From: Minisyncoccia bacterium
GTDB taxonomy: Bacteria; Patescibacteriota; Minisyncoccia; Phycocordibacterales; DATGWK01
Assembly (NCBI GenBank): GCA_038259265.1
Contig: JBBSOY010000003.1
Location: forward strand, 1-55,853
Length of the DNA: 55,853 bases
Reading direction: 5' to 3'
The translations under genes and the position numbers were made by a program. Positions within the stretch are counted from its first letter, which is position 1, and the number at the start of each line of letters is the position of its first letter. Below are positions 210 through 39,793 of this stretch, piece after piece. Below the pieces are notes generated by a model. That model searched no databases. It was not told the origin of the DNA and worked only from the letters and a program-made list of their open reading frames with translations.

Positions 210-2900
210 TTACTTCACCCCAACCTCCGACGGCATGATCGCCTCTTCGATCAGACTGCCCTTTCGGCCTTTTTTGACATCGAAAGTGAATTCATTGTTT
301 TTGACGTCGACAGTCACGACACCGCCTTTCAAAATGCCTTTTGAAATAATAAGCGATGCTACCTGATTCAAAATTTTATTCTGAATGAGGCGGCGAAGCG
401 GACGCGCACCGTACTGCGGATTGTAGCCTTCTTTAGACAGGAATTCGAGCGCGGCCGGAGTGACTTCAAGTGTAATTTCTTTCTGAGCAAGTCGCTCTTT
501 GACGAAATCAACCTGGATTTTGGCGATGTTTGAAATCGCATCCTGCTTCAACACATCGAAAATAATAATGTCGTCCAAACGATTCAAAAATTCGGGCTTG
601 AAATATTCCTTGAGCGCATTCATGAGGCGATTTTTGGTTTCTTCATACGTATCTTTGTCGGAAACTTCACCTGCAAAACCGATTTTTTGCATGCGGTCGA
701 TAAACTGAGCACCGATGTTTGAGGTCAAAACAATGACGGCGTTTTTGAAGTTGACGGTGCGACCTTTCGCATCTGTCAGACGACCGTTGTCCAAAACCTG
801 CAGCAGAATATTGAAGACTTCCGGATGGGCTTTTTCGATTTCGTCGAAAAGGATGACGGCGTACGGACGATGGCGAACCATTTCGGTGAGCGAACCGCCT
901 TCTTCGTAGCCGACATAGCCCGGAGGCGCACCGATGATTTTTGACACTGCATGTTTTTCCATAAATTCCGACATGTCGATGCGAATCAATGCCTTATCAT
1001 CGTCGAACATAAATTCAGCCAGCGCTTTAGTGAGCTCAGTTTTTCCAACCCCAGTCGGACCCATAAAGAGAAATGAACCGATCGGCCGATTGGGATCGGA
1101 AATGCCGGCACGAGAACGCTTGATAGTATCGGAAATAATCTGCACCGCCTGATCCTGCCCAACTATTCGTCGCTTCAAGAATTCTTCCATGCGGTTGAGC
1201 TTCTCGGCTTCGGCTTCGAGCATACGGTCGGTTGGCACGCCGGTCCAACGCGAAACGATTTCGGCAATATCAGACTCGTAAATTTCTTCTCGTAAAATAC
1301 TACGCGAGCTTTGGAGCTTGCGAAGCTTCTTGGTTTTTGTGTCAATCTCTTTCTCGAGCTCTGGAATTTTACCGTAGCGAATTTCCGCAACCTTCGCAAG
1401 ATCGATCCGCACCTCGGCACTGTCGGCTTCGTGACGCAGTCGTTCAATATCTTTTTTATGATTTTTTATATCAAGCACCGTTTCCTTTTCATTTTTCCAT
1501 TTGAGTTCAATTTCCGACGTCTGCTCTTTCAGATCGGCAATTTCTTTGTCGATGTCTTTCAAACGGGCCTTGGTTTTCGGACTCTTGGTAGTTTTTACTT
1601 CTTTCGAAAGCGCTTCTTTTTCAATCTCCAAGCGCATAATTTTAGAATGGGCTTCTTCCAGTACCGGCGGCATGTTTTCCAAAGAAATTCGGCGGAATGA
1701 TGCGGCTTCGTCGATCAAGTCGACGGCCTTGTCGGGCAAAAATCGGTCGGTGATGTATCGGCTGCTTAAATTGACGGCGGCGCGAATCGCATCGTCGGTA
1801 ATATGCACACCGTGGAACAGTTCGTATTTGTCTTTCAAACCGCGCAAAATGGCGATCGCGTCTTCGACAGACGGCTCATTTACAAAAACCGGCTGAAAGC
1901 GGCGGGTCAAAGCCGGATCTTTTTCAATATATTTTTGGTATTCCTTCAGAGTGGTCGCACCAATGGCCCGAAGCTCGCCGCGTGCGAGCGGCGGCTTCAA
2001 CATATTCGACGCATCGATCGAACCTTCCGCGGCACCAGCACCGACAATGGTATGAATTTCATCAATAAACAAAATCACCCGACCTTCGGAACGTTCGATT
2101 TCTTTAAGAATATTTTTGAGACGCTCTTCGAACTCGCCGCGATATTTTGTACCAGCTATAAGCAATCCGAGGTCGAGCGAGACAAGTTCTTTGCCTTTCA
2201 AAGATTCCGGCACATCGCCTTGTGAAATTTTAATGGCCAACCCTTCAGCAATTGCCGTTTTTCCAACACCGGCTTCGCCGATTAAAATCGGATTATTTTT
2301 TTTACGTCGCGACAAAATCTGAATGATGCGAGAAATTTCATTGTCACGACCGATGACCGGGTCAAGTTTATTTTCCTGCGCAAGCTTGGTGAGGCTGCGG
2401 GTGTATTTTAAAATTGATTTCGGTTTTTTTGGCTGCGACGGTCCTTCGGTCTTCGTCTGTTTGAGTTCCTCCAACACTTTCAAAACTTTTTCCTGGGTAA
2501 TTTTAAATTTAGACAAAAGTTCTCGCGCCGCACCCTGACCTTCGAGAATCGCCACGAACAAATGCTCGGTCGAAACAAACTCGTCTTGCAAGCTGGCAGC
2601 AATTTTCGAACTGTTTTCAATACTTTGCGCAAGTTCTGGCGTGAGGTAAATTTGGTATGACGGCGTGACGGTCGCGCCCGCTTCAGAATTCTCGATCGCT
2701 TCAAGAATCGAGTCGGTCAAAAGAATCGTATCGGTGTCGAGCTTTTCGACAATCGACGTAACCATGCTTTCCTCCTGCAAAATGAGCGCCGCGAGCAAAT
2801 GCATCGGGTTCACGTGGTTTTGGCCGCGCTCAATAGCAAGCTCGTGGGCTTTGCGAATGGCTTCTTTGGCTTTTGTGGTGAAGTGACTGAATGGGGGCAT
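210..2900 (-). CDS. clpB: ATP-dependent chaperone/disaggregase ClpB
   Basis: Clp N-domain, two AAA+ modules ([12 protein letters not shown] and [12 protein letters not shown]), GAR sensor and a long coiled-coil middle domain; 896 aa. Confidence 0.95.
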
Positions 2901-2923
2901 AGGTTAGTTTTATATTAGAATTT

Positions 2924-3790
2924 TTAAATGGTGACGGAATCGAAATACGTGGGATTCTCGCGTTTAATTTCGTTAATGGCAGTATAAAGGGTTTCGATAT
3001 TTTGTGTAGCAGTATAATTTTCAAAACCGACAAGCAGGCCGCTAAGGTTAAGGAGAATTGAACCAGGAGCACTGTCTCGAAGTGGCGTATCGGTTTCCAA
3101 AGAAACGACGCTGGATGAAGTGGTGCTTGCATTTTCGGCACCATTCCGAGCATCAGCAAGATTCACAGAGCTCAACCGGCCAATCGTCACTGCTTCTTTA
3201 TCTTTTCCACCCATTGCGATAACTGTTTGACCAAGCTGCTGCGCATCTGAATTACCAAGTGTTGCGGGAACATAGGTTCGGGAAGCGGCGGATTCAGAAG
3301 GGACCAAAAAGACAGCATTTGTTTTTTCGCTTGTTTCTGCAACTTTCATCGGCACGGACTCACCCCCAGAAAAGAAAACGGCACTGTATGAATTTTCAGA
3401 ATCGTCGCGGATTACCCGTTTGTCGGCCAGTATTGTGCCATTGCTTTTCACCACCACACCAACACTTTCAAATTCCGGATCGCCTCTGGAAGAATTTTTA
3501 TAAATACGAACCAAACTGCTGCGGCTTTTGCTGATTGCGTCGATAACGAGCTCTTCTTCCTTGACCACCACGGTGACTTCTCGCGTCACAATGCCGGGCT
3601 TTGAATCTTTTTCGGTCGGCTGCGGCGTAATGGTTTCAACCGTTCGTTCCACCACTCTATTGATAGTCTGCGTAACAGTCTGCGGTGCTTCTTGGAGCAA
3701 GGAAACAGTAATAATTCCCGTACCGATCGAGGTAACGAAACTTGTGAGCAAACAAAGCAGGACGATTTGGGATTGAGTGAGGTTCTCCAT
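2924..3790 (-). CDS. membrane-anchored trypsin-like (S1C/HtrA-like) domain protein, catalytic residues apparently lost
   Basis: N-terminal TM helix. HtrA-like segments GVVVKSNGTILAD, LGNSDAQQLGQTVIAMG and GSILLNLSGLLVG. No PDZ domain. Start placed at ATG 3790 (MENLTQ). Confidence 0.75.
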   Translation of the reverse strand: MENLTQSQIVLLCLLTSFVTSIGTGIITVSLLQEAPQTVTQTINRVVERTVETITPQPTEKDSKPGIVTREVTVVVKEEELVIDAISKSRSSLVRIYKNSSRGDPEFESVGVVVKSNGTILADKRVIRDDSENSYSAVFFSGGESVPMKVAETSEKTNAVFLVPSESAASRTYVPATLGNSDAQQLGQTVIAMGGKDKEAVTIGRLSSVNLADARNGAENASTTSSSVVSLETDTPLRDSAPGSILLNLSGLLVGFENYTATQNIETLYTAINEIKRENPTYFDSVTI

Positions 3791-3872
3791 TGCCGTAATA
3801 ATAAAACAAGTTTCCCCCTTTGGCAAAAGATTTTTAAAAACGTATACTTATATCACTTTCACGATACTCATA

Positions 3873-4367
3873 ATGACCTCTACAATCTCAAATCAAAGCC
3901 TTTTTTTACTTTTCGGCACCCTGGCTGTGCTTGTACTTTTGAATATTTTTGGGCTTATTTTTTTACATTTTAAAATTAAAAAATTGCTCGGCGGAACGTC
4001 GGCTTCAAGCATCGAGGATAGTCTGGTGCTCATCCGCACAGAGCAAGAAAAAATGGCGGCATTCAAAAAGGAGGTCAACCGCTATCTCGAAACTGTCGAA
4101 ACCCGCGTTCGCCGCAGCATTCAAAACGTCGAAACAATTCGCTTCAACCCGTTCAAAGGCACGGGCGACGGTGGAAATCAGAGTTTTTCTACAGCTTTTG
4201 TTTCAGAAAATGGTGACGGTGTGGTCGTTTCGGGCCTCTACAGTCGCGATCGCGTCAGCATTTTTAGCAAACCAATTAAAAAATTCGAGGCCGAATACGA
4301 ACTTACCCAAGAAGAACACGATGTTTTAAAAGAATCAGAGAAAAAACTCTCAAACAGGGCAAAATAG
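3873..4367 (+). CDS. DUF4446-family protein
   Basis: TM helix, coiled coil and the RFNPF..GGNQSFS..GDGVVVS.LYSR..FSKPI motif. Start placed at ATG 3873. Confidence 0.8.
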   Translation: MTSTISNQSLFLLFGTLAVLVLLNIFGLIFLHFKIKKLLGGTSASSIEDSLVLIRTEQEKMAAFKKEVNRYLETVETRVRRSIQNVETIRFNPFKGTGDGGNQSFSTAFVSENGDGVVVSGLYSRDRVSIFSKPIKKFEAEYELTQEEHDVLKESEKKLSNRAK

Positions 4368-4420
4368 CGTGTCAGTATACTGTTGGCCTCGACTAGGTTA
4401 TATTGAGGCTACGTAAAATT

Positions 4421-6043
4421 ATGTCGAAAAAAGACCTCATACAAAAAAATAGCGCAGGTGTAGCACCAGGCAGTGCAACGAACACGCCGGCACAACCCCA
4501 CACCGAGCGGCCGCCTGTCGTGGTGGTCATGGGTCACATCGACCATGGCAAGTCTACCCTGCTCGACTATATTCGAAAGACAAAAGTCGTGGACGGCGAA
4601 GCGGGTGGCATTACCCAGCATGTTTCGGCATATGAAATTGAGTACGACGCTTCAGAACAAGCTGGCGCAACAGGCGAACACACTTCGCCAAGCGACCACA
4701 AAAAGCGTCGAGTAACTTTTCTTGATACACCGGGCCACGAAGCCTTTCAAACCCTTCGGTCGCGCAGCACCCAGGTTGCCGATGCGGCAATTCTTGTCGT
4801 ATCAGTCGACGACGGTGTAAAGCCGCAAACACTCGAAGCGCTTTCAATAATTAAAGAACAAAATATTCCTTTTGTGGTGGCTATCAATAAAATCGACAAG
4901 CCCAACACTGATATCGAAAAGACGAAGCTCAGTCTCGCAGAAAAAGAAATATACGTTGAAGGATATGGAGGCACTGTTTCTTGCGTACCCATTTCCGCAA
5001 AAACAGGCGAAGGCATCAAAGAACTTTTGGAAGTGGTTTTTTTGGCCACAGATCTTCAAGAATTGACCGGCGATCCGTCGGCCCAAGCGCAGGGCATCAT
5101 CATCGAAAGCCAGCTTGATTCGCGCAAAGGCGTGAGCGCAACGATCATCATCAAAGACGGCACGCTGCGCGTCGGCCAGTTTATTGCCGCCGGCTGCAGC
5201 CAAGCACCTGTTCGAGCGATCCAAAACGACCTTGGTGAAAAATTAGATGTAGCGACGTTTTCGGCGCCGGTCACCGTGGTCGGCTGGAGCGAACTCGTGC
5301 CGGCCGGCGCCGAATTCAATACCTTCAATACCAAAGAAGAGGCGCTCGCTTCATGCCAGGCGTATAAGGCCAGCGAGGCAGCCGCGGCAGCTGCAAAAAA
5401 CAGCGGTGGCCGGACGGAATTCATTCCCCCATCTGAAATCCCAATGATTCCCGTCATCATCAAAGCCGACACTCTTGGCAGTCTCGAAGCTATCATGTTT
5501 GAACTCAAAAAAATCGGCAATGAGCGCATTGGTATGAAAATCATTGCTCAAGGTATTGGCACAATCGGCGAAAGCGATGTGAAGGGTGCAAACACAAGCA
5601 ACAAAGCTTTCATTTTTGGCTTCAATGTAAAAATCGACAATGCTGCAAAAATCCTGGCCGAACGTGATTCAGTGTCAATCGAACTTTTTTCCATAATTTA
5701 CAAACTCAAAGAACGAATCGAAGCCCTTCTTCTTGAACAAACGCCGAAAATGATGGTGGAAGAAATCACTGGCAGCGCCAAAATCCTCCGCACATTCAGC
5801 CGCCAGAAAGACCGCCAGATCATCGGCGCCCGGCTCGAAGAAGGCTCTATTTCTGTAGGCGAAACTGTCAAAATCATCCGCCGTGAAGTTGAAATCGGTC
5901 TGGGCCGGGTCAAAGGCATGCAGCAAGCCAAAAAAGACGTCAGCGAGGTCAAAGCCGGTCTCGAATTTGGCTCACTTGTCGAATCAAAGTTTGAAATTGC
6001 TGTGGGCGACGTCCTCCGTGCTTTCAAAACCGTCGAAAAATAA
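4421..6043 (+). CDS. infB: translation initiation factor IF-2 (short form)
   Basis: RPPVVVVMGHIDHGKST, GGITQH, DTPGH and NKID motifs; IF2 C-terminal domains present; N-terminal domain absent. Confidence 0.97.
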   Translation: MSKKDLIQKNSAGVAPGSATNTPAQPHTERPPVVVVMGHIDHGKSTLLDYIRKTKVVDGEAGGITQHVSAYEIEYDASEQAGATGEHTSPSDHKKRRVTFLDTPGHEAFQTLRSRSTQVADAAILVVSVDDGVKPQTLEALSIIKEQNIPFVVAINKIDKPNTDIEKTKLSLAEKEIYVEGYGGTVSCVPISAKTGEGIKELLEVVFLATDLQELTGDPSAQAQGIIIESQLDSRKGVSATIIIKDGTLRVGQFIAAGCSQAPVRAIQNDLGEKLDVATFSAPVTVVGWSELVPAGAEFNTFNTKEEALASCQAYKASEAAAAAAKNSGGRTEFIPPSEIPMIPVIIKADTLGSLEAIMFELKKIGNERIGMKIIAQGIGTIGESDVKGANTSNKAFIFGFNVKIDNAAKILAERDSVSIELFSIIYKLKERIEALLLEQTPKMMVEEITGSAKILRTFSRQKDRQIIGARLEEGSISVGETVKIIRREVEIGLGRVKGMQQAKKDVSEVKAGLEFGSLVESKFEIAVGDVLRAFKTVEK

Positions 6044-6098
6044 CATTCAATACTATTATTGCGTCAACCATCGGCGCATTTCTAATCTCAATTTTCAC

Positions 6099-6509
6099 AT
6101 GTCCATTCGCCAAGAAAAAATTCAATCTCTACTCGCCCGCCATGTTGGCGAATTTTTAAGCCATGAAGCCGGTTCAATGTCGCTCATCACAGTCACTCGG
6201 GTCATTTTTAATGAAAAAACTAAAAAAGCCGATGTCTTTATTACGGTTTTGCCAGAAACCCAAGAAAAAACAGCACTCGCTTTCGCAAAACGAAAAAGCT
6301 CTGACCTTCGCGAATATGTCAAAGAAAAAGCCAATATGGGCGTCTTGCCAGTCTTTAGTTTTGTCATCGACATCGGCGAAAAGAACCGCCAGATGGTCGA
6401 CGCTATTTCAGCACAAGACGCTCTCCGGGCCGAAGCCAAAGAAGCAAGCACTTCCGATACCCAGTCTGGAGCCTTCTCTGACCTACGCTCTGACGATTCT
6501 CAAGCTTAG
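6099..6509 (+). CDS. rbfA: ribosome-binding factor A
   Basis: Follows infB; ITVTRV..ADVFIT..P.FSF..D KH-type pattern. Start placed at ATG 6099. Confidence 0.85.
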   Translation: MSIRQEKIQSLLARHVGEFLSHEAGSMSLITVTRVIFNEKTKKADVFITVLPETQEKTALAFAKRKSSDLREYVKEKANMGVLPVFSFVIDIGEKNRQMVDAISAQDALRAEAKEASTSDTQSGAFSDLRSDDSQA

Positions 6510-6533
6510 TTTTTTATTGTATATTTAGCCCAC

Positions 6534-6605
6534 GGCCGCGTAGAAAAGTGGGAATTCGGAAGTTTGCAAAACTTCTATGAGCAGGTTCGATTCCTGTCGC
6601 GGCCT
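6534..6605 (+). tRNA. tRNA-Cys(GCA)
   Basis: GGCCGCG acceptor stem, GAAGT-TT GCA AA-ACTTC anticodon arm, GCAGG TTCGATT CCTGT T-arm, U73. Confidence 0.93.
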
Positions 6606-6671
6606 CCGCAGATCAGATATTGAGAGCAATGGAGAAAATTTAATCATCTTAGCTTTATTTGACAAATGCAT

Positions 6672-6753
6672 GCCCGGGTGGCGTAATTGGTAGCCGCGAT
6701 CGACTTAAGATCGATTTCCGTAAGGAGTGCGAGTTCGAGTCTCGCCCTGGGCA
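6672..6753 (+). tRNA. tRNA-Leu(TAA)
   Basis: ATCGA-CT TAA GA-TCGAT anticodon arm, long variable arm, GCGAG TTCGAGT CTCGC T-arm. Confidence 0.95.
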
Positions 6754-7884: not shown

Positions 7885-9090
7885 ATGGAGACAGTCGTGA
7901 ATCAGGAGCTTCGAATTCTCTTGCAGTTCCTTCTCTGGATAATCGGAGGGGGTATCGGTATCATCCTCATTCTTTGGATCTGTGCCCAGTTCGACTTTTT
8001 CGTCACAGGCAATCCAACTGGCCAAGTCAAGGCGATTATGAAGAACGAGACCTTCGAAAGGGCCATCGGGAAAATTCCAGGACACATAGTTACAGAGCGT
8101 GGCCTAGTCATGCGTCTTCCCAAAGGAATGACAAGTGACCCGAATCTCAGTCTGATGAATCGTTTGCTGGGCATCTACTGGATTGGTATTGCGCCAATCT
8201 GCTCCGTCTTCGTCTATTACTTTGAATGGGAGAAGCTTCGGATTATTGCCGGTAGCGGCGAGAGAGAAACTCCGGACGGCAAAAAAATACCTGTTACAGA
8301 TAGTGAGGGTACTGTGGTCGTCCAACGAGGCGAACGAGTCGACTCGATGTTCTACAGATATCCCTACCCGATGACTGCCGTAGCTGCCGAAATCATAGGC
8401 AACTATATGTACGACATCTCTACACTTGCAACTATCGAGCTGGTGAACCTTGAGCAAGCCTTATTCATCGTCCTCCCGACAGGTTCATGGCTCACGGAAG
8501 CAAAAGCTGCAGTCCTTGCCGCTATCCGTTACTATGCGAGCAGTCGAACGGTAGATGAGCTACGACAGAACATGAAGAAGATGTCGACCGGCACAGCAAC
8601 GGCTGTACCTGGTGCAACAGCGACGTCCGATTTCGAAAAGGAAATCATCGACAGAGTGAATAAAGGAAAGCGAGGACTTATCGCACTTTACGGCGTTAAG
8701 CTCTCAGGCATCCAGCTCATCAAGATCACCTTGCATGATCCGAGCGAAGATAAGGCAATCACAAAAGCCACAACCGCCAAAGCAGTTGCGGAAGCCGAAG
8801 CTGAAGCGACAGTCGCTAAAGCAAAGGGTGCTGCCGAAACAGTGCGGATAGCCGCAGATGCTGATGCCTACAAAATCGACACGTTGGCGGCAGCGAACAC
8901 AGCCAGAGTAACCAGCGTACTTGGAGCTGCAGCGAAGATTCCAGGTGCTATTGGGGTGATTTTTGAGGAAGCCCGGCGTGACGGCATTGTTGGTTCGAAG
9001 GCTCAGACTCTGGTGATTGGCCAAGGCCAAGGCGTCATGGTTACGACACCCCCAGCGTTACCAGCTGCCCCAACCCAGACTGGTCCATAA
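7885..9090 (+). CDS. SPFH/band-7-like membrane protein
   Basis: N-terminal TM helix, a band-7-like middle (AVLAAIR..YGVKLSGIQLIKI) and an Ala/Glu-rich coiled coil AKAVAEAEAEATVAKAKGAAE..ADADA. Confidence 0.6.
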   Translation: METVVNQELRILLQFLLWIIGGGIGIILILWICAQFDFFVTGNPTGQVKAIMKNETFERAIGKIPGHIVTERGLVMRLPKGMTSDPNLSLMNRLLGIYWIGIAPICSVFVYYFEWEKLRIIAGSGERETPDGKKIPVTDSEGTVVVQRGERVDSMFYRYPYPMTAVAAEIIGNYMYDISTLATIELVNLEQALFIVLPTGSWLTEAKAAVLAAIRYYASSRTVDELRQNMKKMSTGTATAVPGATATSDFEKEIIDRVNKGKRGLIALYGVKLSGIQLIKITLHDPSEDKAITKATTAKAVAEAEAEATVAKAKGAAETVRIAADADAYKIDTLAAANTARVTSVLGAAAKIPGAIGVIFEEARRDGIVGSKAQTLVIGQGQGVMVTTPPALPAAPTQTGP

Positions 9091-9113
9091 CAACATCCTA
9101 GGAGACAAACCCC

Positions 9114-9142
9114 AACCCGGCCGAAAACGGCTGGGTTTTTTT
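9114..9142 (+). terminator. intrinsic terminator
   Basis: aacccggccg-aaaa-cggctgggtt followed by a T-tract. Confidence 0.85.
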
Positions 9143-9177
9143 ATACAAAATAAAACATACGTTTCCTTATTCACTAT

Positions 9178-9205
9178 TTGACAAAGCAATAAAATGTGCT
9201 ATTCT
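9178..9205 (+). promoter_or_regulatory. sigma70-type promoter
   Basis: TTGACA-16 nt-TATTCT with extended -10 TG; GGGAG precedes ATG 9245. Confidence 0.6.
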
Positions 9206-9244
9206 TTATATCAGAACGAACCTTACAAACAACGGGAGATTCAC

Positions 9245-10330
9245 ATGTGCATTCGTACTCGCTTAGCAGCGAAATGGATAAGTCTAGCCACTTGGAGTGG
9301 TTGGCAAAAGCCCGCGGCTTGGCACCTCAAATTTGGTGTGTGGCAGATGTCAAAGTGGGCACAATTCAATACCTGGAGAGTTGCAAGGAAAGCAACAACC
9401 CCTCCAAAACCAAAAAAGAAAGGCAGAAAAACGGCAGTTCCCGTTCGGACACGTTCCGTCTGGAAAACACCGCTTGAGGTGTGTGTTAGCGTCCTCGTTC
9501 TGTTTGGAGCATACCTGTGGTTTAGAACCCTCATAATCGCACCACAGACAGATGCCGACATTGAGGCATTCAACTGGTCACCCTACACACTCGGTGGCGG
9601 CCTCATCCTCTTGTTCATCATCGTTGCCTTAATACGAATGAACAAGGGAATGCCAAGCTTTCGGATGATTGGAGGCATTCCAGACAGGATCAAGAAACTG
9701 GAGTGGCTTTGGAAAATATTTCACGGCCGCTTCCTGTACATCTTCTACATCTTCGTGCCCTACTTCCTCATTGTCCATGCCCTCTTCCGAAACCATCTGC
9801 CTGGCTGGCATGCTTGGCTCTGGGTAGATGATAGAAAACTTTTCTGGACAATCCCATCGATAATTTGTATCGCGATTTGGGTCTTCACTTTCAAAAAGAT
9901 TGTACCAGGAATTTTTGCTGTAATCATGATGATCTTCCTTGCTGTAATTACAGTGAGGTCATTCGATCGATCTACCATGATGCAAGGTCATTACAGCAAA
10001 ATGGAACAGGAAAAGGGGGTTGAAGCCGCACACATATCAAAACCTCTTCTCATGTTTACCATCCGCATGTCTGCGTGGCCGGGAAAGTGGACACGGATCG
10101 AGCTCGGTGGCCGTGAAAATACGGATGCTCGAATTTTCCCGGAAGGTACCATCAAGGTACGAGCTACGGACACCAACGGTAATATTGAAACCGCTGATCT
10201 CGGTCCAATTGATCCCAATCACTACATACCCACCCTCTACAGGACACTTACTGGGTACGCCGAGGTTCTTGAAATCAAGGCGTCAGGAGTAGAGCCTGTT
10301 AAGGTCTGCATAAGGTTCTACAGAAGATAG
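9245..10330 (+). CDS. hypothetical multi-pass membrane protein
   Basis: Basic N-terminus, about 5 TM helices and a soluble C-terminal domain. Start moved to 9245 because it has an SD-like GGGAG and ATG 9194 lies inside the promoter. Confidence 0.7.
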   Translation: MCIRTRLAAKWISLATWSGWQKPAAWHLKFGVWQMSKWAQFNTWRVARKATTPPKPKKKGRKTAVPVRTRSVWKTPLEVCVSVLVLFGAYLWFRTLIIAPQTDADIEAFNWSPYTLGGGLILLFIIVALIRMNKGMPSFRMIGGIPDRIKKLEWLWKIFHGRFLYIFYIFVPYFLIVHALFRNHLPGWHAWLWVDDRKLFWTIPSIICIAIWVFTFKKIVPGIFAVIMMIFLAVITVRSFDRSTMMQGHYSKMEQEKGVEAAHISKPLLMFTIRMSAWPGKWTRIELGGRENTDARIFPEGTIKVRATDTNGNIETADLGPIDPNHYIPTLYRTLTGYAEVLEIKASGVEPVKVCIRFYRR

Positions 10331-10350: not shown

Positions 10351-10379
10351 CGGGAGCCAGAAATGGCTCCCGTTTTTTT
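10351..10379 (+). terminator. intrinsic terminator
   Basis: cgggagcca-gaaa-tggctcccg followed by a T-tract. Confidence 0.85.
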
Positions 10380-10399: not shown

Positions 10400-10424
10400 A
10401 AAAACCGCCAAAGGGGCGGTTTTT
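10400..10424 (-). terminator. terminator of the pilin array (bidirectional)
   Basis: aaaaaccgcc-aaagg-ggcggttttt. Confidence 0.75.
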
Positions 10425-10462: not shown

Positions 10463-10759
10463 CTACAAGGAAGGACTTATGTAGTCTGGAGCACCGATAC
10501 CAAAAGTCGACAAAATAACCTTTATAATGCCGTACACGCCGACCATAATAAACATCCCTATAATTCCCCACAACATATTCCTCTTGCCGGTTTCTCGACC
10601 GTCTTCACTCCCCGCCTTGTAGATAAACTCGACAAGACCCCAAAAAAAAGTAATGAGTGCAACCGCAAACATCAGAACAATGATTGGATTCAGGATAAAT
10701 TGATTAACCTTATTCAGGAATGAATGAATGTTAAGAGGTGTGCCGGTGGGTAATGACAT
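10463..10759 (-). CDS. VirB2/TrbC-like (T4SS-type) pilin 7, no obvious signal peptide
   Basis: Two hydrophobic helices joined by a charged loop (FFWGLVEFIYKAGSEDGRETGKRNMLWGIIG). Confidence 0.8.
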   Translation of the reverse strand: MSLPTGTPLNIHSFLNKVNQFILNPIIVLMFAVALITFFWGLVEFIYKAGSEDGRETGKRNMLWGIIGMFIMVGVYGIIKVILSTFGIGAPDYISPSL

Positions 10760-10764
10760 GAACT

Positions 10765-11118
10765 TTACGGTCTGATTTCAACGCCAGGAATATCCTGTTT
10801 GCCTGGATTATCTGTTTCTATATTGAGCGCGTCCCCAACAAAACCTACAAGACCCCACACAGCGACCATCACAAACAATGCGACAATTCCCCAAATCATT
10901 ATTCGCTTCCCCTCATCTTTTGCCCCCTCATCACCTGAGTTAAGAATGAACTTTGCAAGTCCCCAAAAGAAGTACAGAAGGGCCAACGCGGCTACGATTG
11001 GAATAAGAATGTTAATAATTCGCCCAATTGATTTGGCAAGATTCTCCACCTTTGTAAGCTCTTGAGCAAAAGCCAAAGCTGGTGCAAAAAACAGACTTGC
11101 GATTATAACTTTTTTCAT
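10765..11118 (-). CDS. VirB2/TrbC-like pilin 6
   Basis: Signal peptide MKKVIIASLFFAPALAFA; core FFWGLAKFILNSGDEGAKDEGKRIMIWGIVALFV. Confidence 0.85.
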   Translation of the reverse strand: MKKVIIASLFFAPALAFAQELTKVENLAKSIGRIINILIPIVAALALLYFFWGLAKFILNSGDEGAKDEGKRIMIWGIVALFVMVAVWGLVGFVGDALNIETDNPGKQDIPGVEIRP

Positions 11119-11258
11119 TTATTTTTTACAAAACTAATAAATTAGTAAACGTGTAATTTACATTTTTACATCTACATCGTTATTATTTTACCACCTGGAT
11201 TTAACAGTAACAATGCTGCTGTGCACAAATTTTGTCGGCTTCAAGATATTCCCTCTGT

Positions 11259-11597
11259 TTAGAAATCGTGAAAAAGTAACCTTGGAATACCATCTATTTC
11301 AAATTCATTTCTGATGAAAGCCACAATGCCCCAAATTGAAAAGATCACAAACAATGCGACAATTCCCCATTTCATTACTTCTTTGCCTTCTTCACGACCG
11401 CTTTCATCGCCGGCATGAAGGATAAACTTGGCCATACCCCAGAAGAAAAACAGGAGTGCGGCGGCAAAAGCAATTTGGGTTAGCAATTGAATTATACTGC
11501 CTATATCTTGGATATAGCCCTTAACGCCTTCGGCCTGGGCAAAGGTTACCAATGGTAAAAACGCCAAGAAAAAGCCAATGGATCTGATTTTTTGCAT
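11259..11597 (-). CDS. VirB2/TrbC-like pilin 5
   Basis: Signal peptide ending TFA-Q; core FFWGMAKFILHAGDESGREEGKEVMKWGIVALFV. Alternative start at 11612. Confidence 0.85.
   Translation of the reverse strand: MQKIRSIGFFLAFLPLVTFAQAEGVKGYIQDIGSIIQLLTQIAFAAALLFFFWGMAKFILHAGDESGREEGKEVMKWGIVALFVIFSIWGIVAFIRNEFEIDGIPRLLFHDF
11313..11508. repeat. pilin core repeat copy A (196 bp)
   Basis: Matches 11723-11918 except at 11342/11752 and 11400/11810. Confidence 0.95.
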
Positions 11598-11605
11598 ACG
11601 AGGGT

Positions 11606-12016
11606 TTAGCATCGTCGCTGACCTGGCAGACAAGTATCGTCAGGTAGAGGAGCACCAGGAGAATTATCGTTCCAGAAATCGTTCGGTGCTGTTGAATAAC
11701 CACCGGGGAGTAAGTCGTCCTGGATGAAAGCCACAATGCCCCAAATTGAAACGATCACAAACAATGCGACAATTCCCCATTTCATTACTTCTTTGCCTTC
11801 TTCACGACCTCTTTCATCGCCGGCATGAAGGATAAACTTGGCCATACCCCAGAAGAAAAACAGGAGTGCGGCGGCAAAAGCAATTTGGGTTAGCAATTGA
11901 ATTATACTGCCTATATCTCCAATTAATCCCTTAGTGCCGTCAAAAGCGCCAATCGCAATACGGGGCACAAAGAGCACTATTCCAAAAAACACAAGAGTGA
12001 TGAATGCTTTTTTCAT
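11606..12016 (-). CDS. VirB2/TrbC-like pilin 4
   Basis: Signal peptide, the same core as pilin 5, and a unique Pro/Cys C-terminal tail. Confidence 0.85.
   Translation of the reverse strand: MKKAFITLVFFGIVLFVPRIAIGAFDGTKGLIGDIGSIIQLLTQIAFAAALLFFFWGMAKFILHAGDERGREEGKEVMKWGIVALFVIVSIWGIVAFIQDDLLPGGYSTAPNDFWNDNSPGAPLPDDTCLPGQRRC
11723..11918. repeat. pilin core repeat copy B (196 bp)
   Basis: Direct repeat of 11313-11508 at a 410-bp offset, with 2 mismatches. Confidence 0.95.
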
Positions 12017-12058
12017 TATTTTATATTCTACTAATAATACGTTTTTACAGATTGTTTA

Positions 12059-12427
12059 TTACTCAGGCAATATTGGCAAATGTCCCGGTGAAATATTGAA
12101 AAATTCTCCACTAAGAAAAATAATAATCGCGTCTATCGAAACAAGAACAAACAATGCGACAATTCCCCATTTCATTACTTCTTTGCCTTCTTCACGACCG
12201 CTTTCATCGCCGGCATGAAGGATAAACTTTGCTAAACCCCAAACAAAAACAAGTGATGCAAGGGCCATGACAATTGGTATTGCCGTCGAAATTAGATCAA
12301 CAAAGATACACACAATACCGGTAAAATTTTCTGTTGAACCGCCGACACTGCATACAGCGGCAAACGTATGCTGTGGCATCAAAAACGCTGCAATTATTAT
12401 CAATACGCTCGGAATAATTTTTTTCAT
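12059..12427 (-). CDS. VirB2/TrbC-like pilin 3
   Basis: Signal peptide MKKIIPSVLIIIAAFLMPQHTFA, a Cys pair, and the shared KFILHAGDESGREEGKEVMKWGIVALFV core. Confidence 0.85.
   Translation of the reverse strand: MKKIIPSVLIIIAAFLMPQHTFAAVCSVGGSTENFTGIVCIFVDLISTAIPIVMALASLVFVWGLAKFILHAGDESGREEGKEVMKWGIVALFVLVSIDAIIIFLSGEFFNISPGHLPILPE
12147..12229. repeat. pilin core repeat copy C (83 bp)
   Basis: Identical to 11347-11429. Confidence 0.95.
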
Positions 12428-12431
12428 ATTT

Positions 12432-12812
12432 TTAATGACAATATATGAGCGCTGGGGCAATCTGACAAAGAGTGCCCTTAATTGCCTCAGAAATAGCAAC
12501 CGAACCAAGCAAAATTGCTGAGCCAACTATGACCCACTTGAAAATATCTTTGGCTTTTTCAAGCTGACTTTAATTTCCACGGGCCGTCACAAAAAGAAAC
12601 CCAGAATAAATAATGAAGAACACAATAACCACAGCACCGATAGGCAAAACAATTTCATTTAAAATAATTGTGACGATATCAAAAAGACTATTGACGTCGT
12701 TCCCCAGAGGGTTTGGTAATTTAGTGTTCGGTCCAATCGGAACTTCCCCAATTTGAGCAAAACTAATGATAGGTAAAATAAAGGAAATTAAGAGTAGATA
12801 TACGTGTTTCAA
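12432..12812 (-). pseudogene. VirB2/TrbC-like pilin 2 interrupted by an in-frame TAA at 12570-12572
   Basis: Reading through the stop gives ...FLFVTARGN*SQLEKAKDIFKWVIVGSAILLGSVAISEAIKGTLCQIAPALIYCH*, a complete pilin of about 126 aa. Confidence 0.85.
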
Positions 12813-12863
12813 TTTTTTAAGTTTTTAACTATTCGTTCTTTAAATTGTATCAAATTACCATCC

Positions 12864-13370
12864 TTACACAATTTGGTTCTCCGACAACGTGGATGAAGAT
12901 GGCGTCTGACCTAAAAGATTTTTAAAACCATCTCCCCTAAGCAAGGTTTTAGTGATAAGGAAGACGATAAGCCAGGCCGAAAGCACGAACATGAAGCCAA
13001 TCAAGACCTTAACAAAAATTTCTTTAGCCTGATCGATTTGCCCCGAACTGCCACCAGCAGTAATCATGAGCCAGCCAGCCCAGGCAAAAGCAATTGCCGC
13101 CATCGGTATTGAAAGAAGGATCAAAAAATTCATAAAATTCGAAACGAGTTGCACAAGCTCAGGGTATCCACAACCCTTGTCGGTCGTCGTGCCGGTTTGT
13201 GAAGTTCCTGTGCGTTCAAGCTTTGGCCCATCACACGGAATACCGATGGTTTTTTCAGATGTTTGCTGACTCACCTGTGCAAGCACAAAAACAGGCGAAA
13301 CTACGCTTGCAACAAACACAGCAACAAGGAAAAAAAGTTTTATCTGGTTTTTTGAAATTAGTACTTTCAT
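12864..13370 (-). CDS. VirB2/TrbC-like pilin 1
   Basis: Signal peptide ending VLA-Q, Cys-loop PCDG..GCGY, core AFAWAGWLMITAGGSSGQIDQAKEIF..IGF...LSAWLIV. Confidence 0.85.
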   Translation of the reverse strand: MKVLISKNQIKLFFLVAVFVASVVSPVFVLAQVSQQTSEKTIGIPCDGPKLERTGTSQTGTTTDKGCGYPELVQLVSNFMNFLILLSIPMAAIAFAWAGWLMITAGGSSGQIDQAKEIFVKVLIGFMFVLSAWLIVFLITKTLLRGDGFKNLLGQTPSSSTLSENQIV

Positions 13371-13420
13371 TTTTGATGGAATACTACTAGTGTAGTGTTT
13401 GTTTGTATATCTGCAAAACA

Positions 13421-14719
13421 CTATCTCCTCACAGCAGCTTCAAGCTGTTGGTTGGTTCGAGACAAAACCTGGGACACACTTGCTCGACCAGCAGTAAGCG
13501 ACTCAACCATTTCCCGAAAAATTGGGTTAAGAACCATCGGTTCAGGCGACAACCACGACCTCGACTGAACAGCACCATCATAAAAAAAAGACAAATATGC
13601 TTCAGATGGTCGAGCGGCGAGCAGGTCACGCCGAACTGGCGGCAAATTTGTAACCGAGGACATGGTCTGAATACTTGCTGAGCTTGTGAGAGTTGCTGCG
13701 GCTTGAAGTGCACCGGCAACGTTTTTAGAATTTTTTGGAACTGCCAGACCAATCATTCGTCCATATGTAATAATTTTATTGGCATCTTTCGACTGCGGCA
13801 TAGCAGTAATGTCGAAATTAAGATTTGGATTTTTCAAACGAATGTCTGCAAGCTCGGACGCAAAACCAAAATATAAAGCCAAGTCACCGGAAAGAAAAAG
13901 GGTTTTTGATGGCAACAATGATCGATTCCAAGAATAAAAGGGTTTTAGTGGATTAGAAAATTCAGTATAGAAGTTCAGCGCGTTTTCAGACGGAGGTATT
14001 GGGAAATTCAAGCGCTCATTAAAAAAAGTGCCTACGCTACCGTCATTATTTCTGATGGTGATTGGGTTACCCGCTTGCATAATAAGCAAACTCAGAATTT
14101 CATTTGCATTTGTTACATTACCATATTCCCCGAGCGCAATGGCACTTTTTGTTACATTTAAATTTATATCTTTTACAGTGAGCTTTGTAGACAAACCATA
14201 CATTTCTGTCCAGAATTTTGGTGGAACACTTAAACCAGCATTTGAAAATATATCTCGGTTCCAATACATGATCATTGGATCGATAAGAAACGGTAGACCC
14301 AAAACTCCACTAGGAGTGAGGTACAGTTCCCCTTCTTCAACAAATGTACTTTTAAAGGTTCTTTCGGGGTAGGACTCAAATGGTATTACAAAAATCTTAT
14401 CCTGGTGTTTCAAGATGCTGTCCTGCGGCAGGAAAAAAAGATCGGGGCCAACACCAGATGCGAGCGCCTCGATAAATTCTTGGTCAAAGGTCTCCTTTCG
14501 CTTCTCAACGTACGTAATAACGAGTGTTTTGTCATCTGAAATACCAGATTCATTCATAAATCTATCGAAAAGACCAGCATTCATCGTACCCCAGAGCGTC
14601 ACTCGGGCCGTTTCGTTTGAATTCGAACTTTGACCAAAAGAAAAAATGAGCACGCCGATCAGAATAAAAGCGCCGAAGATGCCGGTGAGGATTAACTGAA
14701 ATTTGCTCATGCCTTTCAT
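13421..14719 (-). CDS. membrane-anchored extracellular solute-binding protein (sugar-type SBP fold)
   Basis: N-terminal TM helix; VTLWG, ALASGVGPDLF, GLPFLIDPMIMYWNRDIF and FLSGDLALYFG motifs of SBP family 1. Confidence 0.88.
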   Translation of the reverse strand: MKGMSKFQLILTGIFGAFILIGVLIFSFGQSSNSNETARVTLWGTMNAGLFDRFMNESGISDDKTLVITYVEKRKETFDQEFIEALASGVGPDLFFLPQDSILKHQDKIFVIPFESYPERTFKSTFVEEGELYLTPSGVLGLPFLIDPMIMYWNRDIFSNAGLSVPPKFWTEMYGLSTKLTVKDINLNVTKSAIALGEYGNVTNANEILSLLIMQAGNPITIRNNDGSVGTFFNERLNFPIPPSENALNFYTEFSNPLKPFYSWNRSLLPSKTLFLSGDLALYFGFASELADIRLKNPNLNFDITAMPQSKDANKIITYGRMIGLAVPKNSKNVAGALQAAATLTSSASIQTMSSVTNLPPVRRDLLAARPSEAYLSFFYDGAVQSRSWLSPEPMVLNPIFREMVESLTAGRASVSQVLSRTNQQLEAAVRR

Positions 14720-14801
14720 ATGTTTTGACGCGATCGTCGTTTAGAGACGTTCAACTTGTTTTATTCTACTACACTTTTTATAACTTTTTACGCACGCGTG
14801 T

Positions 14802-15329
14802 TTACACTTTTTTGAACACAAAACCATAATGATGCGAACCAGCGGCAATTTCTTTTTCAAACACAAAACCACTTTTTTCAAAAATTGTTCGGCATTTTTG
14901 CTTGGTCAGCACATCTTTTTTGTCCGGACCGATGCCGCCAAATGAGTCAGCCCAATCGATAATCAAAACTTTGCCGGCAACTTTCATCACGCGAGCTGCC
15001 TCGGCGGCAAAAATTTCTTTTTCGACAATTTGGAACAGCACATCCGCGACTATTGCCCGTTCGATAAAATTTTCGCGGAGCTTGCTGCCGCCTGCATGGT
15101 CAAAATCCGCCCAAATAACTTCGAGGTTTGAAACATGAGCCTTTTCTGCCTCGCGTTTGAGCGTGACGAGCAATTCCTTCTGCACATCGAGCGCAAAAAC
15201 TTGGCCAGACTGCCCCACTGCCCGCGCTGCCAAAAATGCATAATGCCCGGCACCGCTTCCAAAGTCCGCCACCTTTTGCCCCGGCGAAAGATCGAACTGG
15301 TTCAGGTTTTTTATAGGATCAGAGAACAC
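14802..15329 (-). CDS. class I SAM-dependent methyltransferase
   Basis: VADFGSGAG motif I, VFALDVQ motif II, GKVLIIDW; GTG start. Confidence 0.88.
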   Translation of the reverse strand: MFSDPIKNLNQFDLSPGQKVADFGSGAGHYAFLAARAVGQSGQVFALDVQKELLVTLKREAEKAHVSNLEVIWADFDHAGGSKLRENFIERAIVADVLFQIVEKEIFAAEAARVMKVAGKVLIIDWADSFGGIGPDKKDVLTKQKCRTIFEKSGFVFEKEIAAGSHHYGFVFKKV

Positions 15330-15404
15330 GATACGTTAATTTTAACCTACACGTATCAACATTTGAAGGGATTACCTCCGCACACCTCTCTTTATATACA
15401 TTAA

Positions 15405-15478
15405 AAAACCGCAATATGTGTCTTGGAGGCGTTTCGCGAAGCGGGGCTCACGCCGGAAAGACACAGGTAGCGGGTTTT
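15405..15478. repeat. structured palindromic element E1, doubling as gyrA terminator
   Basis: Long hairpin; its 39-nt core at 15422-15460 is 33/39 identical to 27335-27373. Confidence 0.8.
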
Positions 15479-15504
15479 ATTAATTTAGAAAAAATCTACT
15501 GACT

Positions 15505-18000
15505 TTAGAAACAAATGAGAGACGCGATCCGATCCTTGTCACGGAGCTTCATGATGCGCACACCCTGAGTCGAGCGGCCGAGAAGTGGAATTTCTTTCAC
15601 ACCGGTTCGAATGACCTGACTTTTCTGAGAAATTGCCACGAGCTCTTCGGTTTCTTCGGTCACGATCATGCCGGAAATAATGTCGCCAGTTTTGTCGGTC
15701 ACTTTTGCAGTTTTGATACCCGAACCACCGCGATTTTGAATTTTATATTCGTCGATTTCTGTACGTTTACCGTATCCGTTGCTACTAATGATGAGGAGAG
15801 ATGGTTTTACATCGTCTTTTGTAACAACCTGCGCGCTCACAATACTGTCGCCGCGGTCGAGCTTCATAGCCCGCACACCACCGGCACCGCGTCCCATTTC
15901 GCGAATATCAGACTCTTTAAAACGAATCGACTGGCCCTGGCTCGTCACGAGCACTGCGCTGCTGCCTTTGGCTACAAACGAAGCAGAAACAAGTTCATCA
16001 CCCTGCTGGAGTTTGATAGCGATCAAACCACTGCGGCGAACGTCGTGGAAACTGGTGGCGGCCACGCGCTTACCCACGCCATTTTTAGTAATCATAAGCA
16101 AAGAAAGCTCAGAGCCTTTGACCGTCTTTGGCATGACAAGAATTGAGGTCACGTTTTCATCTGCTTCGAGCGAAACGAAATTGTTGAGCGACTTGCCTTT
16201 TGTGGCGCGTTTGCCTTCAGGAAGTTCATACATTTTTATCTGAAAAACCTTGCCTTTGTCTGTAAAGAAAAGCACGTCGCTGTGTGTACTGCCGATCATC
16301 AAATGTGTGACGAAATCTTCGTCTTTGGTTTCGAGATCCACCACGCCGACACCGCCGCGTTTTTGTTTGCGGAATTCTTCGGGCTTGGTGCGTTTTACAT
16401 AGCCACCAGCCGTCAGCACGAGGGCATTTTCTTCTTCGGGCACAAGATCTTCGACCGAAAGAATTCGAGCACCTTGCTTCATAATGATCGTACGGCGATC
16501 GTCGCCATATTTTTCGGCGATTTCATTGGTTTCGGTTCGGATGATTTCAAGAATCTTTTTCTCACTACCCAAAATTTCTCGACACTTTTTTATGAAAAGC
16601 TGCACCTCGGCGAGTTCGTCTTCGAGCTTCTTGCGTTCGAGACCGGCGAGTTTTTGCAAACGCATTTCCAAAATCGCGGTCGCCTGAATGGCGCTAAATT
16701 TGAATTGCTTGATCAAATTTGCATGTGCTTCCGGCGTGTCTTTTGAGGCTTTGATGAGTTTGATGATCGCATCGATGTGGTCGAGCGCTTTGGTGAGGCC
16801 GAGCAAAATATGTTCGCGTTCGAGGGCTTTTTTGAGATCGTATTCGGTTCGGCGACGGATCACAGTCTTTCGGTGGCCGATGAATTCAGCCAACATGCTT
16901 TTTATGGAAAGAGTCTGCGGCACGCCGTCTACGAGCGCGACGAGATTGTAATGAAATGTTTCTTCGAGCTGGGTATGTTTATAGAGCGCGTTTAAAACTT
17001 TTTGCGGATGGCCGCCGCTTTTGAGGTCGATGACCACGCGAATGTCTTTGGTGGATTCATCTCGCAAACCTTTGATGCCTTCGAGTTTTTTGTCGCGGAC
17101 AAGGTCGGCGATTTTAATGATCAAATCTGATTTATTGACGCGATACGGAATGGCGGTAATGACGATTTGGTTGACGCCGGCTTTTGTTTCAACAATTTCC
17201 GCAATGCCACGACACACAACACCGCCGCGACCAGTCGCCGACGCATGATGAATATCTTTTCGGCTAAATGCGACACCGCCGGTTGGAAAATCAGGACCCT
17301 GAATGAATTCCATCAGGTCTTCGGTGGTGGCTTCAGGGTTATCGAGCAAATGAATGACGGCCTGAGACACTTCGCGCAAATTGTGCGAAGGAATGTTTGT
17401 GGCCATACCAACCGCAATGCCCAGTGTTCCGTTCAAAACGAGGTTTGGTACTGCAGACGGCAAAACGGTTGGTTCCTTTCGGGTACCGTCGTAGTTCGCT
17501 CGCCATTCGACGGTTTCTTTTTCAATATCACGCAAAATTTCGCCAGAAAGCCGAGACATTTTAGCCTCTGTGTATCGCATAGCCGCCGCTGGGTCGCCGT
17601 CGATATTTCCAAAATTACCCTGACCAACAATGAGTGGATAGCGCAATTTAAAATCCTGGGCCATTTGGACCATTGAGTCGTACACCGCAACGTCGCCGTG
17701 CGGATGATAGTTACCGAGCACGTCGCCCACGACGACGGCAGATTTTCGAGTCTTCGCAGAAGCGGTCAACCCTTTTTCAAGCATTGAGTACAGAATGCGA
17801 CGATGGACCGGCTTCAAACCGTCGCGCACGTCGGGCAAGGCACGCGCGGTAATAACTGACATCGCATAGTCGAGATACGAATCCTTCATCTCGGTCGTGA
17901 TGTTTCGAGACACGACGTTTACGTGTGGCAAAATAGGCGAACCAGATTCGCCGTCATTTCCACCAGCACCGCCCTTCGGTTTTTTCGAGTCTTTACTCAT
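15505..18000 (-). CDS. gyrA: DNA gyrase subunit A
   Basis: [29 protein letters not shown] (catalytic Tyr), GyrA-box QKRGGVG and beta-pinwheel repeats. Confidence 0.98.
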
Positions 18001-39600: not shown

Positions 39601-39793
39601 GATCTGGGCGCGAAAAGCGACTGGCTACACAATCGGCCTTATCCTCGCAACAATCGCCGCTATCTGGTACCAGGTGTTTAGCATCGTCGTACCGCTCCTC
39701 GTCTTGGCCATTGTTTCTGCAGTCTTCCTCGCTTGGAGCCTCAGCAAGAAATCACAGGTAGACGAAGCAATCATTCTTCCTCCACGAAACTAA
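36602..39793 (+). CDS. large cell-surface protein (DUF4114-like, DUF5011/Ig-like, peptidoglycan-binding-like, C-terminal TMs)
   Basis: Signal peptide, S/D/T/P-rich linker, GFED..DFDYNDVV, PVLTLLGDNP..FTDPGATATDTEDGDLT, VLKLQYFL..TGVFDDAT..AV..FQ and 3 C-terminal TM helices. Confidence 0.85.
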   Translation: MKNQTNIFGKNSIAAKLVTAIVLVSIIIPNAFLISIPTVLAQGIQELAKSHTTDASASDSLDSVDSSSSSSDSSSDESSSESASASDTAAPAVSQSEVMGPPTPPAPTETPASEGSETAPTAANETTPVVTEITPDETPVVVADEPATISPDATDTNTDSSGGGSAANTDGERVSNVTSNPGVIRICTMFVDSNNNIMTSNAGLPAGTFQVGLTDAVGNPIARSSISAHAFIPNAHIIESTDDAICETVYNLPVDNSTDGTYAGYTYTPSEFSVGVPGYWKETKYNDQSDTQVTSTNDFYELSSTNGNSDGFISLSPSRPSRTLVVLHMFADVPLPCVAGSELDQDQFFNAIYSGYITRDAITFSNTNGAGGVATFHMTNTTGCTAPISLASYKMFDNVVVHQQLFEKTDVVLATSSTSITVNLPDCKAQVDAFTGPAASEFVTGATYLYPENPFILAAGISGGSFCGTTPPPPAACAVPNALGDVTPETIRTNTNNETTLQSILTNNGYAINAVADQQNYQIWNASENAVTMNATFIDGVSALNGTFGYYLADTGIASFVPLFSTGSNRLYPTVGTINRGQNMSFTVPADEKIGFALASEASGGNVYFSITENALTMSDTDTVVTYNAGNNSYILGFEDNTSDTSDFDYNDVVIDLRITDCGNGPTGPSNSAPVLTLLGDNPMNIIVGSTFTDPGATATDTEDGDLTSQISKTGEVDANTIGTYTITYTVSDSQGLTDTETRVVNVVAEDTTDTRGGGGGRSGGGGRRSSGGQILGAETGPTACIYLNDHLRRDWDNDTIEVLKLQYFLRDLEGFSTLNATGVFDDATFDAVESFQNRYFGDILAPWGHTAPTGFVYILSKKKVNEIFCRSAFPVTALEAQEIASFKAFMENLKSAGIDVSSDSMTAPAGSDMSDETMTVPEDGLVGSLVSTSTMAKINRDRIDLGNIKQVAAAVFSIPKDKGMILQSLYFLLIALIAVYLFTEIIVGSRDTSRLSKYQIWARKATGYTIGLILATIAAIWYQVFSIVVPLLVLAIVSAVFLAWSLSKKSQVDEAIILPPRN

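Follow-up and report, generated by a model that had tools for sequence, protein, structure and literature searches.

Nine co-oriented minus-strand genes at positions 10463-15329 of a 55,853-nucleotide (nt) stretch of Minisyncoccia DNA (contig JBBSOY010000003.1 of assembly GCA_038259265.1; hereafter the window) comprise one S-adenosylmethionine (SAM) methyltransferase, one solute-binding protein (SBP) and seven genes of the type IV secretion system (T4SS) pilin family PF18895 (T4SS_pilin). Among relatives in the class, a pilin directly follows the SBP at every locus that we counted, and the pilins of the array are position-specific orthologues whose order is fixed. We favour, with moderate confidence, the view that the seven genes are a chromosomal VirB2-like pilin array of a Paceibacteria-type Patescibacterium, assembled by a VirB4 machine encoded away from the array, with the SBP beside it. 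The genome amounts to 690 kb in 33 contigs and is 92% complete; the window is its contig C3, and whole-genome counts for this organism apply to that assembly.

Sequence and predicted structure of the pilins

A preliminary description, made from the DNA letters, had placed nine minus-strand open reading frames (ORFs) in this interval, and all nine were present there in one orientation:

SBP, 13421-14719, minus strand: 432 amino acids (aa), membrane-anchored, MalE-like; SBP_bac_1 9e-15, SBP_bac_8 1e-14
pil1, 12864-13370, minus strand: PF18895 30.8 bits; leader; Cys pair in the N-terminal loop
pil2, 12432-12812, minus strand: in-frame TAA at 12570-12572; PF18895 28.5 bits when read through; C-terminal Cys pair past the stop
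pil3, 12059-12427, minus strand: PF18895 38.1 bits; leader; N-terminal Cys pair
pil4, 11606-12016, minus strand: PF18895 48.3 bits; leader; C-terminal Cys pair
pil5, 11259-11597, minus strand: PF18895 48.2 bits; leader; start set at the ATG that opens MQK, although the longest ORF begins at 11633
pil6, 10765-11118, minus strand: PF18895 45.2 bits; the most canonical T4SS_pilin of the array
pil7, 10463-10759, minus strand: 98 aa, leaderless; PF18895 28.5 bits; last gene
Methyltransferase, 14802-15329, minus strand: 175 aa, class I, SAM-dependent; Methyltransf_31 48 bits (cut-off 27); no signal peptide by eye

As called, six of the seven small ORFs passed the PF18895 gathering score of 26.6 bits (28.5-48.3 bits), and all seven frames did so once pil2 was read through its TAA. 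By this profile the small proteins of the array are assigned to the VirB2-like T4SS_pilin family, which bears out the earlier description of seven paralogous two-helix pilins with two corrections, the interruption of pil2 and the young duplication of pil4 and pil5. Most paralogue pairs are 23-50% identical. The whole genome gave eight PF18895 matches, seven of them in the array, and the family was detected in only one of 14 control genomes, so the clustering is far beyond chance.

Read by eye, pil1 to pil6 carry Lys-rich hydrophobic leaders with A-x-A-like ends (AQ, AA, GA or QA) and pil7 carries none; Cys pairs lie ahead of helix 1 in pil1 and pil3 and at the C-terminus in pil2 and pil4. This reading agrees with the six signal-peptidase-I-type leaders and the several Cys pairs reported before. 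Cysteines C46 and C67 of pil1 are invariant across 51 orthologues.

The AlphaFold model of pil6 (54 orthologues) consists of a leader helix, a helix at residues 21-59, a loop at 60-63 and a second helix at 64-97, with a predicted local distance difference test (pLDDT) score of 84.5, and the remaining six pilins align across this two-helix core. When a profile of pil6 orthologues was searched against 177,635 PDB sequences, the top match, a weak one (E 0.026), was the pKM101 pilin TraM (8cw4). Kinship of the array pilins with classical VirB2 is likely, if weakly shown, and pil6 is a candidate for the major subunit.

Conserved gene order in relatives

For the class, we took the best 80 of 445 loci encoding SBP relatives (44-74% identity). 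A full SBP ORF was obtained at 78 of these, and its downstream neighbours were counted at the 71 loci that extend 600 nt or more beyond it, its upstream neighbours at the 75 that extend 700 nt or more ahead of it. At all 71 loci with enough downstream sequence, the gene directly after the SBP was a pilin, even where SBP identity was as low as 44-48%. The 63 complete arrays held mostly six pilins (29 arrays) or seven (20 arrays), and their members correspond to those of the window by position: the best match was position 1 for pil1 in all 63, position 2 for pil2 in 60 and position 3 for pil3 in 42, with pil4 and pil5 finding theirs at middle positions, pil6 at the penultimate position in 51 arrays and pil7 at the last in 53. 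The spacing is shared as well, the median gap in 57 arrays being 101 nt ahead of the penultimate gene versus 21 nt between the last two. That distinct orthologues keep a fixed order speaks for a heteromeric structure rather than for simple variation.

At the 20 most distant class matches to the SBP (22-27% identity), pilins were found in 16 loci and the methyltransferase also in 16. The pilins lay downstream of the SBP in 15 of those 16 pilin loci and, in the other, upstream between gyrA and the methyltransferase. Pilin domains are also seen in fused form: one 258-aa ORF holds two of them (L134, 5044-5820), and in distant class members pilin modules end ORFs of 650 aa to 1190 aa directly after the SBP (L110, 3159-6734; L091, 7861-9810).

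Outside the class, 20 loci were ranked by descending SBP score. At the nine best-scoring, a pilin array comes after the SBP, and gyrA and the methyltransferase are missing from the surroundings; at the other 11, a profile built from Paceibacteria found no pilin beside the SBP, and two of these 11 showed weak pilin-domain matches in large opposite-strand ORFs several kb off. SBP-pilin adjacency follows a large SBP subfamily and not the whole phylum.

An orphan sugar-binding protein

The AlphaFold2 model of the SBP (pLDDT 94.6) has an N-terminal transmembrane helix at residues 6-29, followed by a short linker of low confidence. Foldseek matched it to the binding proteins of ATP-binding cassette (ABC) importers for mannotriose, sucrose, cycloalternan, maltodextrin and cyclodextrin (E 5e-22 to about 1e-21, TM-score about 0.7), and a profile search returned the same oligosaccharide-binding group by sequence (4qrz, 2.5e-30). 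In an alignment of 79 sequences, many aromatic positions show no change or almost none, which, going by sugar-binding proteins in general, would fit a retained glycan site.

No partner for import was found. The genome holds no match to the permease domain BPD_transp_1 and no second SBP_bac_1 protein (one match in total). Among five relatives, three had no BPD_transp_1 match, including a Campbellbacteria record titled as a complete genome, and two had a single match each; at the 11 loci where the SBP is unlinked from pilins, no ABC permease lay beside it. The earlier account of a membrane-anchored, sugar-type SBP with no permease nearby is upheld by these results, and the search that it proposed for a cognate permease left the SBP an orphan. 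In sequence and modelled fold, this orphan is a membrane-tethered, MalE-like oligosaccharide-binding protein.

The SBP is mostly single-copy and was present in 140 of the 151 class genomes sampled (134 of the 142 of high quality) and, by profile at E <= 1e-20, in 134 of 161 genomes from a phylum-wide sample. Complex prediction for the SBP with mature pil1 scored 0.00, which is evidence neither way. A fusion of the SBP with the first pilin in relatives was not confirmed: the single long frame of this kind (L131) is bridged by a masked stretch translated as X, further long frames proved to be over-extended at the N-terminus, and a search for longer pil1 relatives returned three matches, none of which has an SBP domain, in itself weak evidence. 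Among the SBPs that are unlinked from pilins, two are preceded by a gene for a Wzy_C (O-antigen-ligase family) protein (L125, 8360-9634; L128, 8356-9651) and one by a sortase gene (L121, 8439-9233), neighbours that hint at a role of the SBP in the handling of surface glycans or surface proteins.

T4SS-like genes on other contigs

A scan of the 20 largest window ORFs turned up no VirB4, VirD4 or VirB11, in line with the earlier finding that the window lacks these ATPases. A co-oriented T4SS-like cluster is encoded on another contig of 8.3 kb (C19), at 1287-6690:

PrgI/VirB3-like protein: PrgI 4e-12
220-aa protein
VirB4-like ATPase: P-loop_TraG 1.9e-26, AAA_10
102-aa membrane protein
353-aa secreted protein
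327-aa protein: T4SS_pilin domain (the genome's eighth) and a Cys-rich tail

Because the contig stops on either side, the cluster may be larger than seen. A VirB4 ATPase with a PrgI/VirB3-like partner is the pair that marks an MPF-FATA-like T4SS of Patescibacteria, and the genome has both, outside the window. On a further contig (C6, 1-1908) we found a coupling-protein-like ATPase with T4SS-DNA_transf, TrwB_AAD_bind and TraG-D_C all above their cut-offs; its gene adjoins one for a DUF4015 putative glycosyl hydrolase. A VirB4-like gene was present in five of five relatives and was distant from the SBP-pilin locus where the two shared a contig.

Comparison with known systems

Patescibacteria were already known from published work to carry VirB2-like pilin genes in tandem arrays (PMC12102498, PMC10633639). 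Using PF18895 and PF04956, Quinonero-Coronel et al. (2025) counted 441 VirB2 arrays, each with 2-11 genes, across 383 assemblies, as the main text of their paper reports, with a mean identity of 25% and a maximum of 54%, and suggested host-range versatility as their role (PMC12102498). The array described here is like those in its tandem PF18895/VirB2-like genes, the low identity between copies and the presence of VirB4 in the genome. It is unlike them, as far as that text describes them, in being led by an SBP, unlinked from virB4 and composed of position-specific orthologues, and the 70% amino-acid identity of pil4 and pil5 is above the maximum reported there. The terms solute-binding and substrate-binding never occur in the main text of that paper.

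According to the passages cited here, Wang et al. (2023) identified a series of essential predicted pilins in the T4SS cluster of Ca. Southlakia epibionticum (PMC10633639), a finding repeated in a 2025 review (PMC12857230). Of such systems, only T4SS-like genes with their pilin arrays have been shown to be essential to a cultivated Patescibacterium in its epibiotic life (PMC10633639). The Southlakia pilins lie inside the T4SS cluster, whereas those described here are on a different contig from VirB4, and a binding protein is not mentioned in those passages. For three Paceibacteria in co-culture, Kuroda et al. (2024) count T4SS pilins with the secreted proteins of highest expression (PMC10936435).

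With the VirB2/TrbC/TraA pilins of diderm bacteria (pKM101 TraM, 8cw4), the array pilins share a leader, two hydrophobic helices, a short polar loop and a mature length of about 70-100 residues; they differ in their weak sequence similarity, in their monoderm host and in being seven ordered paralogues in place of one major pilin. The SBP has the two-lobe fold and the Pfam families of MalE-type ABC-importer proteins (CpMnBP1, 4r9g; Atu4361, 4qsd). Unlike them, it has an N-terminal transmembrane anchor and no MalF/MalG-type permease, and it is single-copy, near-universal in a phylum of reduced genomes and co-oriented with pilins. We found no literature linking these pilins to a binding protein, within a search whose scope left subscription journals and supplements aside. 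In searchable papers, the fixed order of distinct pilin orthologues and the near-universal orphan MalE-like SBP at the head of the operon seem to be undescribed, and the fixed SBP-pilin linkage was likewise not found in print.

Proposed mechanism and alternative explanations

In the mechanism that we propose, the pilins would enter the membrane via Sec, and signal peptidase I would remove the leader from six of them. Their extraction and assembly into a short pilus or an envelope-spanning conduit for host contact would fall to the VirB4-type machine encoded on C19. Positions of the array would differ in role: pil6 and pil7, which sit behind a gap of their own, are the likeliest bulk subunits, and pil1, with its invariant disulphide loop, may be a specialised one. 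Beside this apparatus, the SBP would be a receptor for glycans that serves as an adhesin or senses a sugar of the host surface. Gene linkage points to this receptor role, which we rate at slightly less than an even chance. A bolder version joins all parts into one glycan-guided contact organelle, in which the MalE-like receptor would bind a host-envelope sugar and would position or trigger a heteromeric VirB2-type pilus of seven non-redundant subunits built by the unlinked VirB4 machine. We regard this version as unlikely; if it were true, the SBP would be an integral, ancestral part of the T4SS-like apparatus of Patescibacteria. A near-universal orphan SBP heading the operon offers a candidate, open to experiment, for the host-recognition component still missing, and as a soluble, confidently folded protein it makes expression and glycan screening feasible without cultivation of the organism.

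Several points weigh against the reading of the locus as a T4SS-assembled pilin array with a functionally linked SBP. No pilus, transcript or protein has been observed for the locus. The preliminary description had proposed a profile search against T4SS pilin and TrbC families as a check, and its two halves diverged: PF18895 scored above cut-off, and pil7 reached 14.1 bits against PF04956 (TrbC/VirB2), below the cut-off of 27.9. Fold searches with the pil6 model (Foldseek, VIA) returned generic helical hairpins alone, neither showing nor excluding a VirB2 fold. A genome-wide search for VirB4 and VirB6, also proposed there, found the VirB4-like gene on C19 and no match to VirB6 (TrbL, PF04610), the latter in a genome that is 92% complete, on a short C19 and with PF04610 as the only profile used. 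In this genome the array has no adjacent virB4, which is on another contig. A whole-genome search with PF18895, made in ten of the 11 other-class lineages with no pilin beside the SBP, showed that pilin arrays are present in all ten but lie apart from the SBP. Moreover, five of five class genomes that are 100% complete and lack the SBP by single-protein query have four to eight pilin matches and a VirB4-like gene; the pilins therefore do not strictly need the SBP. Finally, gyrA and a metallo-beta-lactamase (MBL)-fold gene (mbl) belong to the same conserved block, so gene order alone is no proof of shared function.

The last three of these points are also what would be expected if the SBP and the pilins were neighbours by descent only, kept in a frozen order, with the SBP serving a separate envelope job on the cell's own surface glycans or in an unrecognised transporter; the Wzy_C and sortase neighbours of unlinked SBPs favour the same explanation. 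Set against it are the persistence of adjacency in all 71 class loci, including those with SBP identities below one half, and its recurrence in the nine other-class loci that have neither gyrA nor the methyltransferase nearby. That the pair persists without the remainder of the block is the stronger argument for a link. Gaps within the unit are also short, and a terminator splits off gyrA whereas none lies between the SBP and the pilins. We consider descent alone rather unlikely, if far from negligible. The earlier placing of the SBP in one module with the pilins is supported by the class loci counted, and is weakened by the distant lineages and the SBP-less genomes.

The preliminary description had instead modelled a heteropolymeric attachment filament that is independent of a T4SS, with the methyltransferase modifying the pilins. 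Its heteropolymeric element agrees with our results, as distinct subunits in a fixed order fit different roles in one structure. Its other elements could draw on the lack of a T4SS ATPase among the window ORFs scanned and on the linkage of the methyltransferase, which immediately precedes the SBP in 58 of 75 class loci and recurs at most of the distant class loci described above. The VirB4-like, PrgI/VirB3-like and coupling-protein-like genes and the eighth pilin-domain protein encoded elsewhere in the genome, however, leave a filament without T4SS machinery unsupported. As a modifier, the methyltransferase is a poor candidate: it is a generic cytoplasmic class I enzyme with no signal peptide and no specific family, and it is missing from 17 of the 75 loci, in most of which gyrA abuts the SBP, and from all nine other-class SBP-pilin loci. 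The conserved methyltransferase-SBP-pilin order predicted earlier therefore holds for its SBP-pilin half and only in part for the methyltransferase, which is most likely a housekeeping neighbour inherited with gyrA and not part of the module. We think the T4SS-independent filament improbable.

The SBP without an ABC permease could also suggest that there is no filament at all, and that the two-helix proteins are a membrane pore or platform that receives oligosaccharide from the SBP, an unconventional importer. Patescibacteria depend on host nutrients, which would suit such a device. It has no known precedent, though, the family is related to VirB2 pilins, and pilins occur without the SBP, and we hold this explanation to be highly improbable. 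Only a small weight falls, too, on the idea that the array is a store of interchangeable paralogues that widen host range or evade recognition, as proposed in the main text of PMC12102498. Variable termini and turnover in mid-array (the pil3-pil5 duplication, and the weaker positional matches of pil3 to pil5) speak for it. The end positions, on the other hand, are stable orthologues over 63 arrays with invariant features of their own, such as the pil1 Cys pair.

Boundaries of the unit and the methyltransferase

The nine genes lie between two flanking signals, and both the gene coordinates and these signals match those of the preliminary description:

gyrA, 15505-18000, minus strand: precedes the terminator hairpin
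gyrA terminator hairpin, 15400-15484, minus strand: -50.3 kcal/mol, z -3.29, unmatched by any of 200 shuffles, then U6; upstream boundary of the unit
AT-rich gap, 11119-11258, minus strand: 140 nt, ahead of pil6 and pil7; two promoter-like sites, 11213-11185 and 11131-11102
Terminator-like hairpin CCGCC-CCTTT-GGCGG with a T-run, approximately 10400-10424, minus strand: read directly in the sequence; closes the unit

A consensus scan placed a promoter-like site at 15367-15339, between the gyrA hairpin and the methyltransferase. The hairpin at 10400-10424 is absent from the list of the consensus scanner, which gave only a plus-strand terminator at 10351-10372 belonging to a convergent gene. The 140-nt gap before pil6 showed no significant RNA fold and is a possible internal promoter, to judge by its promoter-like sites. 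Convergent with the array, at 7885-10330, are genes for an SPFH/Band-7-like protein and a 378-aa membrane protein; these recur beyond the array in several relatives, so the conserved block reaches past the pilins.

That the first gene encodes a SAM methyltransferase was borne out by the Methyltransf_31 score, and the protein was also above the cut-offs of Methyltransf_25 and Methyltransf_11. It reached no NCBIfam model. Its best solved relative is the uncharacterised 3dh0, and its atlas neighbours are unnamed Minisyncoccota methyltransferases.

The pil2 stop codon and the pil3-pil5 repeats

The pil2 TAA sits in the inter-helix loop. In 70 position-2 orthologues, the corresponding position is occupied by P (29), E (27), T (5), Q (3), S (3) or other residues (3), and the two nearest relatives (L006 and L007) have E there, so a single GAA-to-TAA change suffices to produce the stop. 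The portion of pil2 past the TAA is still well conserved. Among locus-bearing sequencing runs, a single DNA run and no RNA run is listed; a Logan contig of that DNA run matches the window over 12316-13500, TAA included, although the run is probably the source sample and the match therefore not independent. We interpret the TAA as probably a young nonsense mutation. Recoding of TAA was considered and rejected, as ORFs of the operon end at ordinary stops, the pil2 frame itself ends in TAA and the nearest orthologues have GAA.

Positions 11313-11531 in pil5 and 11723-11941 in pil4 are 95% identical in nucleotide sequence over 219 nt, indicating recent duplication or gene conversion, and a third copy lies at 12113-12331 with 68% identity. 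Logan contigs of the DNA run break within the pil3-pil5 repeats, where the pilin copy number could be mis-assembled.

Other features of the window

Two further large ORFs lie elsewhere in the window. A minus-strand ORF of 1952 aa at 49562-55420 had no Pfam match at E <= 0.001. The 1063-aa protein encoded at 36602-39793 combines DUF4114, a bacterial surface Ig-like domain and a PG_binding_1 domain; proteins with peptidoglycan-binding domains were highly expressed in Paceibacteria co-cultures, according to the part of PMC10936435 cited here.

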